Source of the DNA: Escherichia coli
GTDB taxonomy: Bacteria; Pseudomonadota; Gammaproteobacteria; Enterobacterales; Enterobacteriaceae
NCBI RefSeq assembly: GCF_050320075.1
Contig: NZ_CP190018.1
Direction: 5' to 3' (one strand)
Length of the DNA: 64,000 nucleotides
The position numbers and the translations under genes were made by a program. How positions within the stretch are numbered: position 1 is the first letter of the stretch; every line of letters starts with the position of its first letter. Under the pieces are notes generated by a model that was given only the letters and a program-made list of their open reading frames with translations, was not told the origin of the DNA and did no database searches. Positions 32,299 to 37,700 of the stretch are shown here, one piece after another.

Positions 32299-32331
32299 TA
32301 AACAAAAACGCAGAAGGATAACCTTCTGCGT
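32299..32331. terminator. intrinsic terminator between convergent ydhP and sodB; T-tract on the sodB (minus) side
   Basis: ACGCAGAAGG-ATAA-CCTTCTGCGT; minus strand continues TTTTTGTTTAATT. Confidence 0.7.
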
Positions 32332-32442
32332 TACAGTTGCTGGCAACGTGCGATTTATCTTGCCGGATGCGGTGTTAACGCTTCATCCGAGTTGGCATGG
32401 TAAGCGAAGCGCATCAGGCAATGTTGCATTTGCCATCAGTTA

Positions 32443-33024
32443 TTATGCAGCGAGGTTTTTTGCTACGAATTCCCAGTTCACCAGCGCCCAGAAGTGCTCC
32501 AGATAGCCAGGACGTGCATTGCGATAGTCGATGTAATAAGCGTGTTCCCAGACATCAACGGTCAGCAGTGGAGTCGCATCGGTGGTCAGCGGAGTACCCG
32601 CGTTAGAGGTTGAAACGATAGCCAGTTTGCCATCGCTGTTTTTCACCAGCCAGGTCCAGCCAGAACCAAAGTTTTTGATTGCTGCATCAGTAAACTGTGC
32701 TTTGAAATCGGCAAAGCTGCCAAAAGATGCGGCGATAGCTTCAGCGACTTTTCCAGTCGGTTCGCCACCCGCGTTCGGTGCCAGGCAGTTCCAGTAGAAA
32801 GTATGGTTCCAGACCTGAGCTGCGTTGTTGAATACGCCACCTTCAGAGCTGCGAATAATCTCTTCCAGTGATTTACCTTCAAACGCGGTACCTTTAATCA
32901 GGTTGTTCAGGTTAGTGACATAAGTCTGATGATGCTTGCCGTAGTGATACTCGATAGTTTCCGCAGAAATGTGCGGTGCCAGAGCATCTTTAGCATATGG
33001 TAGTGCAGGTAATTCGAATGACAT
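32443..33024 (-). CDS. sodB: iron superoxide dismutase SodB, 193 aa
   Basis: [40 protein letters not shown]... Confidence 0.97.
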
Positions 33025-33151
33025 TGCTACTCTCCTTTATTATTAATTTGCATACGTACAATAGCCTTATTGTGCGTATGGATAGGGTAGCAAATTAAAA
33101 GGTGAGACAAAAGATGAACTTACCCTGTTGCCGTAACAACAGGGTAAAGTT

Positions 33152-33979
33152 TTAGCGAAGTGTTTTTGGAGTCATTACCCGGCGAGCGCCAACATAGTGG
33201 CGCTGCCAGTAGTCTTCACTGAGAGAAGTGATTTGAATTTCCTGACCCGTACGCGGTGACTGAATAAATTTGCCGTTGCCGACATACACGCCGACATGAT
33301 CGGCTGTACCGCGTCCCTGAGTACGGAAGAAGACCAGGTCGCCGTTTTTCAGCTCACTACGTTCGATAGGTGCTGCATCACGCAGGTGATACATTTCATT
33401 CGCCGTACGCGGAATACGAATTTTCACCAAATCTTTATAAGCGTAATAAACCAGGCCGCTGCAATCAAAACCGGTACGCGGTGAGCTGCCACCCCAACGA
33501 TATGGCTTACCAATTTGCTGCATCAGTTTATTCATTGCCACTTTTGTGGCTTTTTGCACCTTCGCTTTGTGTGCGTCGGCAAGGGTTCCTGACGCGGCAT
33601 TTTTGACTTTCACACAATGCGATTTATAGCCCTTACGTTTGGTACACTTTTCGGTAAAGCTGGCTGAGGCCGTTTTATTGACGGCGTGTTTGCTGCGAGT
33701 TTTGGCGTTTTTAGAAGCGGTAATGGAAGATTTTTTAACGGAAGAAGCGGTTTTGCTTTTGGTCGTACTTTTACTGGCGGCTTTTTTCGCTGTTTTCTGG
33801 CTGGCTTTCTGGGTCTTTTTGGTGGTTGCCGTGCTTTTCTTTTTATCTGCTTTTTTGGTGATATGAGTGGTAGCAGAACTCTCCCTGGCTTGCTTTGAAG
33901 CATGGGCCATAGGTGTTAAAGGCAGGGTGGTAAAAAGTAAAGCACAGAGCGTGATCGAAATACGGTTTATCCGCACCAC
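33152..33979 (-). CDS. mepH: NlpC/P60 peptidoglycan endopeptidase MepH (YdhO); start codon uncertain
   Basis: Signal peptide, Lys/Thr/Ser-rich linker, C-terminal NlpC/P60 domain (FDCSGLVYYAY, H near C-terminus). Confidence 0.85.
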   Translation of the reverse strand: MVRINRISITLCALLFTTLPLTPMAHASKQARESSATTHITKKADKKKSTATTKKTQKASQKTAKKAASKSTTKSKTASSVKKSSITASKNAKTRSKHAVNKTASASFTEKCTKRKGYKSHCVKVKNAASGTLADAHKAKVQKATKVAMNKLMQQIGKPYRWGGSSPRTGFDCSGLVYYAYKDLVKIRIPRTANEMYHLRDAAPIERSELKNGDLVFFRTQGRGTADHVGVYVGNGKFIQSPRTGQEIQITSLSEDYWQRHYVGARRVMTPKTLR

Positions 33980-34313
33980 TGAGCGTCCCTCTGTTAAGGC
34001 AGGTCTATCATGCCTGCGTCTGATTTACAAAACTTGATGATTCTAATGCATAGAAGAAGAGAAAGTTAATAGCTTTTATTGTTAAAAAATACGTTTCGTC
34101 GGCGAGCGCAAAAAAATGCAGCAGTGAAAGCTAAAAATGGTTATAAATACGCCAGTTTGCCGTGCATAAGGGAAGAAACGAATATTTGAAATGCAACAAA
34201 TAGAGCAAAGGGATAAAATAGCAAAAGCGTGATGAAAATGTTATTTTCCGATGCCGCACTGACCCGCTACAATGTCAGATTACTGCCGTAAAGAAGTTTG
34301 AGGAAGCAAGACA

Positions 34314-34661
34314 ATGAGCACCACTATCGAAAAAATCCAACGCCAGATTGCTGAAAACCCGATCCTGCTGTACATGAAAGGTTCACCGAAACTGCCGAGC
34401 TGCGGTTTCTCTGCCCAGGCAGTCCAGGCGCTTGCCGCATGTGGCGAACGTTTTGCCTATGTTGATATTCTGCAGAATCCGGACATTCGTGCGGAACTGC
34501 CGAAATATGCTAACTGGCCGACTTTCCCGCAACTGTGGGTTGACGGCGAGCTGGTCGGCGGTTGTGATATCGTGATCGAAATGTATCAGCGTGGCGAACT
34601 GCAGCAGCTGATCAAAGAAACTGCCGCTAAATACAAGTCTGAAGAGCCGGACGCGGAATAA
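34314..34661 (+). CDS. grxD: monothiol glutaredoxin Grx4, 115 aa
   Basis: CGFS active site in ...PKLPSCGFSAQAV... Confidence 0.95.
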   Translation: MSTTIEKIQRQIAENPILLYMKGSPKLPSCGFSAQAVQALAACGERFAYVDILQNPDIRAELPKYANWPTFPQLWVDGELVGGCDIVIEMYQRGELQQLIKETAAKYKSEEPDAE

Positions 34662-34677
34662 TCCGTCCTGCAGTACT

Positions 34678-34710
34678 GACGGATGCGAACGGGCATCCGT
34701 CAGTTCTTTA
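34678..34710 (+). terminator. probable grxD terminator
   Basis: GACGGATGC-GAACGG-GCATCCGTC followed by AGTTCTTTATC. Confidence 0.5.
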
Positions 34711-34711
34711 T

Positions 34712-37700
34712 CTATCCCCAATCCAGCCCTTGTGGCGAACTTGAAAATCCCGCCTCACGCAGCAGCGTAAACATCGGCGTTTGCCGGACCGGTAGATCAT
34801 TCACTTCTGTTAGCGTAAAGCGCAGCCGTGGTTCGCGACGCAGTGCGGTGGTCAGCGCCTGGAAAATCTCTGGGGCGAGTAATTCATCTTTTTCCTGCCA
34901 GACCAGCATTTTTTTGCCGCCTTGCGCCAGATAGAGTAACAATTTGCCGCCAGAAACGACCACCAGCGCACCCGCCCGACGCGTTGGAACCAGCGTTGCC
35001 GGATGTGCAGGCCAGGGCAGAAGATTTCCCCACACATTAGCCGGATCGTTGGCGGAGAGCGCCACTGGTGTATAGTGGCGCGTTTGCGTGGCTTGTGTCG
35101 CCAGATCGCGCAATCGGTCAATAGTCAGACGTTCAGCGAATTGCGCACCCCCCAGACCTTCTACAAAACGACCTCGCATAATTCGCCCGGAGTCTTCCAT
35201 ACTTCGACAAAGCGTTTGCATCGATGGAAACCCGCCAGGGATATTTTCGGCTATCACCGCCTGACGACTGATGATGCCGTAGCGGTCGAGCATATTTTCC
35301 GCCAGCGCCAGCATCCTTTCGGTATCGTTTAGTGGCTCCACCTGCAATAACGACCAGCGTCCAGCAAGATTTGGTGTGTTGTAAGATACCCGTGGCGAGA
35401 CGGGTTGTGCATAGACAGGACGCCCACGACGAGCCCGGTGACTGCGGCGAGTCGAGGTGCGTGCGTTGGAACTGCTGCGGGTGAGGGCGCGTAACGGTGC
35501 CCAAATGTCGCTGGTGATGACGCCTTGCCAGACCAGCGCCCATAACGCCTCTTGCATGGCTGAGGGATCAACCGATTCGCCGATTTTATCGCGTATCCGT
35601 TGGCTGATTTGTTGTGCAAACCAGGCTCCTCCGTCAGCCAGAACAGCGATTATCGCTTGCTGCAGCGCCGAACGATTCGCCTGATCTGCTTCGGCGGGAG
35701 TGAACGATTCTGCGGCATATTCCTGTAGATGCAGTGCCACCAGACCGTCATCTTCACCCAGCTTTTTTTGCCCCGACCAGATAACCGCACCGGTTGCCAG
35801 TAATTCATCGAGCATTTCTGGCGAATAGTCGCGTACGCGGGCAGGCAGGATCTGGCTTTCCCAGAGTGAGGCGGGTAAACCAACGCCAGCAAGCTGTTCG
35901 ATCACCCGCATCACGCCATCCACGCCCTCATAAACGCCTGGCGATGTTGAGGCAAAGAGTGCCGGGCTACCATCGGTGGCGGGTAATACGCCCTGACGTT
36001 CCAGCAGCAATCGCGCATAGGTCGTGGCCGCAACGGGACGTGTCGCTTCTCTGGCGGCTTGCAGCGAGCGCAAACGCAGACGACGAAATACTTCATCGCT
36101 CACCCAGATGTCTTGTTGCAGATTCATCACCAGCCCCTGTTCGCGCAGTTGCTGAAGTTGCTCTTCGACAATGGCAATACCGAGACTAAACTCATGAGCC
36201 AGTTGTTCAGACGTGACCAGAGCATGAGCCCGGAGATAGCGCAGAAAGAGGTCGCGAAGCGGGTAACTGACTCGGTGCAAATAAATCTCTGGCAGTGACT
36301 CTGGTAGTCGTACGCCGAGAGCATCGCGCAGCCTGGCGGCATCATCCATACAGGCAAGACGCTCCTGCCCGCTAATCATGGTCGGGAAGATTCGTTTTAC
36401 TGCAAGAAGATTTTCCAGATACGACGCAATCTCTTCACTGCTGCCTGTATGTCGTTGCGCCAGGTCTTCAACGGTCATTGGCCCCAGTTCGCGCAGCAGG
36501 TCGAACAATCCTTCTTCACCTTTCGCTCTTCTGCCAGGAGCCAGTCGTTGCAACTCTTCTTCCACCTGGCGAATGACCTGCGGGTCGAGTAATTCCCCCG
36601 GATCGACCTGTCCGAGTAGATTGCGCAGTAACTCGCTGTCCAGCGACAGTACGGATGCCCGGCGCTCTGCCAGCGGGGCGTCGCTCTGGTACATAAATTC
36701 CGCGACATAGCCGAACAATAAACTGGCGGCGAAAGGCGAAGGCGTAGTGGTCGTTACATCGGATATTTGAATTTCGCCACCGTTCAGGCGACGCATCAAA
36801 CGTTCCAGCGCGGGAAGATCATAAACATCTTGCAGACATTCGCGTAGTGTTTCGAGAATGACCGGAAAATCCGGATATCCCTGAGCGATTTCCAGCAACT
36901 GACTGGCGCGCAGCCGTTGTTGCCAGAGCGGGGTGCGATGGCCCGGCGTGCGGCCCGGCATTAATAATGCCCGCGCGGAGCATTCGCGAAAACGGGCGGC
37001 GAAAAGTGCCGAGCTGCCTACCGCCTCGCGGACAATTTGCAGCAACTTTTCTGGTTCAAACAAAAAAATCGCGGCATCAGGCAATTTACCATCGGTGTCA
37101 GGAATGCGCGCAACAATGCCGTCATCACTGGCAACCACAGACGCGTCAGCGCCCCATAGTGCATGTATTCGCCCGGCAATCGCCAGCGCCCAGGGTTCAT
37201 GCACCCGTCTTCCATAGGGAGAGTGCAAAATAATACGCCAGTCACCAATTTCATCACGGCACCGTTCGAGGACCAGATGACGACTACCTGGAACGATGCC
37301 CGTCGCGTTGCGCTGCTCGTCAATCAACCCCTGAATATTGGCGATCGTATTTTCTTCTGCCAACCACGGGGGAATAGTCCCGGAAAAGAACGCGCCATCC
37401 GCCAGTAAATGGAGAAAATCGCCGATCATCTCGCCTAATTCTGCCGGACGTCCGTTACCTTCACCACGCCAGAAGGGAAGGCGGGCAGAACGACCTGGAG
37501 CAGGAGTCACAATCACCTGATCGCGGGTGATTTGCTGGATCCGCCATGAGGTAGCGCCGAGAGTGATAATGTCGTTCACCCGCGACTCATATACCATCTC
37601 CTCATCCAGTTCACCCACCCGCCGCGAACCGGCCTGTTCTTCACCTTCGGGTAATAACACGCTATACATGCCACGATCCGGAATGGTGCCGCCGCTGGTA

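Follow-up and report, generated by a model that had tools for sequence, protein, structure and literature searches.

Does the low-complexity tract of the Escherichia coli peptidoglycan endopeptidase MepH encode anything besides MepH itself? The question is raised by the gene mepH (ydhO), which occupies positions 33152..33979 on the minus strand of a 64,000-nucleotide stretch of contig NZ_CP190018.1 (assembly GCF_050320075.1; hereafter the window). From a list of open reading frames (ORFs) and an identical annotation by the Prokaryotic Genome Annotation Pipeline (PGAP), mepH encodes a 275-residue periplasmic NlpC/P60 peptidoglycan DD-endopeptidase that begins at a GTG codon. By composition and predicted disorder, residues 28-110 (33650..33898, minus strand) form a low-complexity tract rich in Lys, Thr, Ser and Ala, and an earlier note on this DNA had claimed that this tract generates phantom ORFs in other frames and on the opposite strand. 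We conclude from the sequence evidence set out below that the region very likely encodes only MepH, and that three long ORFs overlapping the tract are passive, non-coding shadow ORFs. Nothing here is new in kind: these are textbook shadow ORFs, an already known piece of biology.

All three ORFs are present in the ORF list at exactly the coordinates first proposed for them, and the original description of their products as Lys/Pro-rich and Phe/Leu-rich is fair by measured composition. ORF A, in the sense +1 frame (33610..33903, minus strand; ATG start), would specify 97 residues, of which 21% are Pro, 19% Lys, 13% Leu and 11% Arg. ORF B, antisense to mepH (33639..33866, plus strand; TTG start), would specify 75 residues (27% Leu, 19% Val, 16% Ala and 15% Phe) in a frame whose third positions coincide with mepH third positions. 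ORF C, also antisense (33686..33898, plus strand; GTG start), is codon-aligned with mepH and would specify 70 residues (24% Phe, 21% Gly, 10% Arg and 10% Leu); it is bounded by mepH's two TCA serine codons, S28 and S105.

The composition of the tract explains why these frames are open. Lys (25%), Ser (19%), Thr (18%) and Ala (17%) together make up 80% of residues 28-110. On its sense strand the tract has 42% A but only 13% T, compared with 24% T in the window; for A on the plus strand, the tract falls at the 0.7th percentile of the window. The low T content arises because Lys, Thr, Ser and Ala are mostly written as A/C/G-rich codons (AAA/AAG, ACN, AGC/TCN and GCN). Since the stop codons TAA, TAG and TGA all begin with T, and their complements TTA, CTA and TCA each contain one, few stops occur in the +1 sense frame or in the two antisense frames. 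A stop in the +1 sense frame requires NTA followed by R or NTG followed by A, and hence one of the codons for Leu, Ile, Val or Met, which are almost absent from the tract. A stop in the codon-aligned antisense frame requires a TTA, CTA or TCA codon, and a stop in the frame of ORF B requires either a codon ending in T or C followed by TAN or a codon ending in T followed by CAN, combinations that are rare in the tract.

We compared the observed open runs with four null models, all of which preserve the MepH protein, comprising synonymous-codon shuffles, codon-usage resampling from the window, and permutation of the tract's own codons. The +1 sense frame is open for 101 codons against a null median of 78 (P(null >= observed) 0.21-0.24), the codon-aligned antisense frame for 76 codons against 70-84 (0.42-0.60), and the antisense frame with shared third positions for 78 codons against 78-91 (0.53-0.61). 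Between 19% and 28% of synonymous recodings leave at least three alternative frames open for at least 70 codons. When the tract's own codons were permuted (nulls A2 and C), the +1 frame remained open for 101 codons in every replicate, and its openness is therefore forced by the amino-acid sequence. Under synonymous recoding we found no excess of ORF length, given the host protein, of the kind that would mark an overlapping gene (P = 0.2-0.6), and the claim that the low-complexity tract itself generates the ORFs is borne out. Across the window, at least four of the six frames are open for at least 70 codons at 6.7% of positions, in 14 segments of at least 100 nt, one of which is the mepH tract segment at 33668..33863. 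A 112-residue TTG-started ORF at 34386..34721 (minus strand), which lies antisense across nearly all of the neighboring gene grxD (34314..34661) and is longer than every phantom ORF in mepH, illustrates how common shadow ORFs are in the window.

The main rival to this account is that at least one alternative-frame ORF, for example the Lys/Arg/Pro-rich +1 ORF or the hydrophobic peptide of ORF B, is a genuine translated overlapping gene. The ORFs are 70-97 codons long and have canonical or near-canonical starts, yet their lengths are fully expected from the MepH protein sequence, and they lack usable initiation signals, an antisense promoter-like site, homologues and domains. Pairing with the anti-Shine-Dalgarno (anti-SD) sequence upstream of the mepH GTG reaches -6.3 kcal/mol, through a well-placed GAGGG. 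ORF A has no usable Shine-Dalgarno (SD) sequence, its anti-SD pairing being only -1.5 kcal/mol, and ORF B shows no anti-SD pairing at all (0); ORF C has a pairing of -5.6 kcal/mol, but at 16-24 nt upstream it is too distant from the start, by a spacing criterion of 5-10 nt. A consensus scan of 33050..34320 detected no promoter-like site on the plus strand; the sole sigma-70-like match there, TTAACT-18-TAGAAT at 34040..34069 on the minus strand, is a consensus match only, situated some 60 nt ahead of the GTG at which mepH begins. The products of the three ORFs have no match in Pfam or NCBIfam. In codon usage ORF A scores poorly, at -0.28 with 14% rare codons, compared with +0.24 for mepH. As a discriminator the codon-usage log-odds are informative for the +1 ORF and uninformative for the antisense ORFs, so we did not use them against the latter.

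Comparison with mepH DNA of E. albertii, Citrobacter amalonaticus, Salmonella, Kosakonia and Leclercia points in the same direction. In all of these species the tract has 11-15% T and 65-80% Lys, Thr, Ser and Ala, and two to four alternative frames are open for at least 70 codons, but the set of open frames and their endpoints vary among them. The +1 run extends for 101-120 codons in Escherichia and Citrobacter and for only 58, 46 and 53 codons in Salmonella, Kosakonia and Leclercia, respectively. E. albertii and Citrobacter retain the ATG of ORF A, which lies within the CAT GCT (His-Ala) codons of the signal peptide's A-H-A cleavage motif, and this motif alone accounts for its conservation. 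Of the 19 substitutions in the tract that separate E. coli from E. albertii, a small sample, 12 fall at mepH third positions, and the same 19 substitutions cause seven amino-acid changes in the mepH frame versus 9-15 in the five other frames. Given the small sample, these counts point to protein-level constraint on the mepH frame only. The ORF conservation with purifying selection that would characterize an overlapping gene was not found among these species, as the +1 ORF is broken in three genera and ORF boundaries differ everywhere.

Two observations weigh against reading all three ORFs as non-coding. The antisense ORFs have gene-like codon-usage scores of +0.27 and +0.18, which do not separate them from mepH, although such scores are to be expected, since a common codon often has another common codon as its complement. 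In addition, the frame of ORF B accumulates only nine amino-acid changes relative to E. albertii, close to the seven of mepH, in counts that are small and in a frame that shares mepH third positions. That frame is also open for at least 74 codons in all seven genes examined, though such openness is a known property of the antisense frame whose third positions coincide with those of the sense frame. Translation of some embedded antisense ORFs, and the existence of out-of-frame internal starts, have been argued for in E. coli (10.1101/520783). Against this, the searched supplements to a survey of antisense overlapping genes and to a single ribosome-profiling study of small ORFs do not include ydhO, mepH or b1655, and more broadly these names go unmentioned in the literature and supplements we searched on E. 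coli small ORFs, Ribo-RET and antisense overlap, which is absence of evidence only. Taken with the null models, these data make a translated overlapping gene at this locus highly improbable.

While the +1 frame is very likely silent in the cell, it does surface in protein databases. The tract contains six A runs of 5-6 nt within 250 nt, the longest being A6, and several database proteins labeled as MepH read the tract in the +1 frame. Four of them (P0032, P0127, P0042 and P0047) begin with MLQSKPGRVLLPLISPKKQIKRK..., which corresponds to the phantom ATG at 33903, and regain the MepH frame at three different junctions. P0032 (STG18834.1), a 246-residue "putative exported hydrolase" without a signal peptide, traces to an insertion that turns the A6 run at 33731..33736 (minus strand; GTT AAA AAA TCT) into A7. 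This A7 allele occurs in a minority of E. coli samples, on 36 contigs, including an NCBI record and Illumina-based assemblies of four runs (Logan assemblies ERR13763722, ERR13763582, SRR27638975 and SRR27535746, which we aligned to the window as L007-L010). Such records arise when a frameshift in mepH leads a gene finder to take the longest ORF, so that the phantom +1 peptide is fused to the catalytic domain and the signal peptide is lost. Two further proteins, P0013 and P0025, retain the native start, shift into the +1 frame through loss of one base in the A6 run at 33851..33856 (minus strand; ACC AAA AAA GCA), and shift back downstream. In their assemblies (L011, GCA_900448615.1, UGAW01000002.1; L012, GCA_052953275.1), which carry compensating indels in homopolymer runs of mepH, the call for the adjoining grxD likewise falls short of the usual 115 residues or is split, and for this reason the double frameshifts are likely homopolymer assembly errors. 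The +1-read records are thus no evidence for alternative-frame translation; they show how a phantom ORF enters protein databases. For annotation hygiene, the three ORFs should stay uncalled, a point of little biological weight, and the +1 ORF explains the recurring mis-called proteins that begin with MLQSKPGRVLLPLISPKKQIKRK... as frameshifted mepH pseudogenes or assembly errors.

The same A runs could be taken for a phase-variation switch for mepH, or for sites of slippage, whether ribosomal or transcriptional, that leads into the +1 frame. Their density, the occurrence of the A7 allele on contigs from independent samples, the presence of at least three different frameshift junctions in public proteins, and an open +1 frame that would spare shifted ribosomes immediate termination all speak for such a mechanism. 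However, the best matches drawn from 5,426 complete E. coli genomes include no full A7 match, the closest being 99.6% identical and one base shorter, and Tandem Repeats Finder detected no simple sequence repeat in a tract whose longest run is A6, so that the hallmarks of a phase-variable locus were not found. Runs of six are shorter than the tracts usually tied to phase variation or to ribosome sliding on poly(A). A +1 shift would moreover terminate at 33610 without the catalytic domain, which is plain loss of function. Since mepH is dispensable in some strains (it is deleted in TUM2805 and truncated in ST2747), sporadic pseudogenes are expected by drift, and the doubly frameshifted "restored" proteins come from assemblies with short or split grxD, which suggests sequencing error. 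We regard a slippage or phase-variation role as exceedingly unlikely.

A related idea is that the tail is robust to frameshifting, such that a shift in one A run, if compensated by a later one, would still yield a secreted, active MepH carrying a Lys/Arg/Pro-rich tail. The +1 reading of the tract carries a net charge of about +25 over 69 residues, is proline-rich and is probably disordered, and P0013, P0025 and P0067 are database sequences that fit a compensated shift. We consider this a very long shot; if these three sequences were real alleles, the tract would be a natural case of selection acting on charge and disorder and not on reading frame. Low-level +1 slippage, or independent translation, that yields a free Lys/Arg/Pro-rich peptide is more speculative.

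What, then, is the tract within MepH? Residues 1-27 (MVRINRISITLCALLFTTLPLTPMAHA; 33899..33979, minus strand) resemble a Sec signal peptide, with an A-H-A|S motif at which cleavage would occur and no lipobox, and this signal peptide is conserved in MepH orthologues. The tract is followed by residues 111-156 (33512..33649, minus strand), a segment that a low-confidence AlphaFold model predicts to form a hairpin (strands 109-113 and 121-125) and then a helix (133-156) leading into the catalytic domain; the predicted hairpin carries Cys112 and Cys122, both invariant in 57 orthologues. Residues 157-267 (33179..33511, minus strand) form the NlpC/P60 catalytic domain, which matches PF00877 with E = 8.2e-37 and 125.8 bits (cut-off 23) over profile positions 1-105 of 105 and is the sole Pfam domain in MepH. 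The NlpC/P60 family belongs to peptidase clan CA, family C40. C173 (GFDCSG) and H228 (ADHVGVY) are invariant in the same 57 orthologues, and by analogy to MepS we take them to be catalytic residues. DD-endopeptidase activity of E. coli MepH on 4-3 cross-links is taken from the literature that PMC11211486 cites. Matches to solved structures, among them MepS/Spr and further NlpC/P60 chains, start no earlier than residue 126, save one long LytE alignment, so with that exception no solved structure covers the tract. Pfam and PGAP annotation agree with the placement of the tract after the signal peptide and ahead of the NlpC/P60 domain; given cleavage at A-H-A|S, however, what had been called a linker would not join two domains but would form a tail at the N-terminus of the mature protein.

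This tail is probably disordered and polycationic. Its net charge is about +20 and its hydrophobic fraction about 0.08, and an AlphaFold model built on the 57 orthologues gives predicted local distance difference test (pLDDT) scores of 26-36 and no secondary structure by DSSP over residues 18-111. Across genera the tract is only 25-50% identical to that of E. coli, compared with 87-96% for the catalytic domain, while its summed Lys, Thr, Ser and Ala fraction (0.58-0.82) and its net charge per residue (0.19-0.28) are retained. The tract thus combines biased composition, low hydrophobicity, an absence of predicted secondary structure, and composition kept without sequence, all features expected of a disordered region, and what selection appears to preserve is its composition, charge and rough length rather than the precise sequence. 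Counting against this picture, the mean pLDDT of the AlphaFold model is 49, which is poor overall and means that the disorder call leans on weak modeling plus composition, and the MepH literature we searched makes no mention of a role for the N-terminal tract.

If the tail has a function, the lysine-rich sequence could serve as an electrostatic or flexible element that helps the enzyme contact the anionic sacculus. It may also offer a point of attachment for NlpI/Prc-dependent turnover, by analogy with MepS, which binds NlpI through its disordered N-terminus (PMC11211486); MepH itself is a target of Prc/NlpI degradation (PMC8996183). Because Prc/NlpI proteolysis controls MepH and the MepS N-terminus binds NlpI, a role for the tail in substrate or adaptor engagement is plausible, with moderate confidence at best.

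The notion that exact sequence does matter, with the tract forming a degenerate repeat or a folded module for binding, which is suggested by the tract's tightly clustered length (median 83 residues; 74-91 in most genera) and a nearly invariant KKK motif near positions 46-48, is scarcely credible in view of the 25-50% identity across genera with many indels, the existence of E. coli alleles lacking 10-32 residues, the absence of predicted secondary structure (pLDDT about 28), a hydrophobic content of about 8%, and the failure of Tandem Repeats Finder to detect any repeat. A tandem-repeat origin of the tract was likewise rejected, as the Tandem Repeats Finder output was empty and a repeat search gave just one weak 15-nt direct repeat pair.

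The earlier note's expectation that the length of this region varies between strains holds, in the form of a common dimorphism, rare in-frame deletions, and a range of 48-99 residues across the orthologues compared. The window carries 12 bp, encoding QKAS, at 33801..33812 (minus strand) between 7-bp direct repeats of CCAGAAA, as seen by DNA alignment; K-12, BL21, O157:H7 and UTI89 have a 271-residue allele without QKAS. A 200-nt query centered on this indel finds the long form in 1,878 complete E. coli genomes and the short form in 3,546. Because the longer form persists in E. albertii and Citrobacter, the short allele is most simply a deletion between the CCAGAAA repeats, and the K-12 allele thus appears to derive from a longer one by loss of 12 bp. 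Within each E. coli length class the tract is at least 99% identical at the nucleotide level, so it is not hypervariable, and rare E. coli and Shigella alleles with larger in-frame deletions have tracts of about 48-71 residues as opposed to 80 or 84. Among 101 full-length cluster representatives the tract spans 48-99 residues (median 83), with net charges of +9 to +23. Short direct repeats, A5-A6 runs and low complexity would together favor in-frame indels and occasional frameshifts in the tract. The K-12 deletion variant, the tolerated loss of up to about 32 residues and the conserved charge density are absent from the MepH literature we searched; together, the K-12 variant, the tolerance for length change and the charge density of +0.19 to +0.28 in Enterobacteriaceae could steer study of how MepH contacts the sacculus or NlpI/Prc.

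The identity of the gene is secure on near-identity and synteny, with grxD upstream and sodB downstream marking it as the MepH/YdhO orthologue. Of 5,426 complete E. coli genomes, 5,425 match a 951-nt query around the tract, and 5,423 carry a match that covers at least 80% of the query. In E. coli YZLc1-3 (NZ_CP123240.1), which matches the query at 100%, PGAP calls mepH with the same GTG start, within a gene order (lhr, grxD, mepH, sodB, ydhP) identical to that of the window. The name MepH rests on this identity and synteny because no MepH-specific NCBIfam model reached its cut-off. The second codon of the window's mepH (33976) is GTG, giving GTG GTG (Met-Val), while the other E. coli alleles examined read GTG GCG (Met-Ala); with Val in place of Ala at residue 2, two adjacent in-frame GTG codons open the gene. 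In TUM2805 (L005, NZ_CP128950.1) mepH is almost wholly deleted, leaving a 114-nt 3' remnant annotated as a pseudogene, and in ST2747 (L006, NZ_CP007394.1) it is truncated at the 5' end and lacks the N-terminus; these losses would fit a gene made dispensable through redundancy with MepS and MepM.

Several features flank the gene. Directly past the mepH stop, a consensus scan finds a terminator-like 13-bp hairpin with a T-run (33119..33148, minus strand), a candidate intrinsic terminator that may act ahead of sodB. Directly upstream of sodB (32443..33024), a full-length but sub-threshold match to the SodB 5' untranslated region thermometer (RF02775) lies at 32995..33099 on the minus strand (31 bits versus a gathering score of 98; E = 0.003). 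It was the best hit of an Rfam E-value scan of 32300..34800, which returned only sub-threshold matches, all outside the mepH tract. In the spacer between grxD and mepH, the BL21 RefSeq annotation includes a 50-residue hypothetical protein, WP_001299740.1 (L002, 120-272). Its counterpart in the window (34079..34189, plus strand) has only 36 residues, diverging past ...YKYASLP in an indel-like manner, and has no annotation in YZLc1-3, the strain with the identical allele; WP_001299740.1 is probably a spurious call.

Our findings can be set against several known systems. In Mir et al. 2012 (PMC3454372), long antisense ORFs are a long-known observation, the codon content of the coding frame dictates the depletion of stops in alternative frames, and an unexplained genome-wide excess of shadow ORFs is argued for. 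In mepH, by contrast, there is no excess to explain, because ORF lengths fall within the null distribution for the MepH protein. MepH (YdhO) of E. coli K-12 shares the locus (lhr-grxD-mepH-sodB-ydhP), signal peptide, tract and catalytic domain of the window's protein, and the alleles are 99% identical apart from the indel; the window allele has 275 residues, with the extra QKAS and with V2 instead of A2, compared with 271 in K-12, BL21, O157 and UTI89.

The Gram-positive NlpC/P60 hydrolase LytE (8i2e) resembles MepH in having low-complexity sequence upstream of a C-terminal NlpC/P60 domain, and its phmmer alignment to MepH (residues 57-267) reaches into the tract. Gram-positive linkers of the LytE type join LysM or other wall-binding domains. 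MepH, in contrast, has no binding domain recognizable by Pfam, and its tract is rich in lysine as well as in Ser and Thr. A further parallel is MepS (Spr), a paralogous NlpC/P60 endopeptidase (PDB 2k1g and 8xud; E about 1e-20 over the catalytic domain) that, like MepH, has a disordered segment N-terminal to its catalytic domain and is controlled by NlpI/Prc proteolysis (PMC8996183 and PMC11211486). MepS differs in being a lipoprotein, by its PDB name, and in the nature of this segment. In the portion of PMC11211486 drawn on here, the disordered part of MepS comprises about the first 36 residues of the mature protein and folds on binding NlpI, with no description of lysine-richness, whereas the MepH tract is about 83 residues long, strongly cationic and low in complexity.

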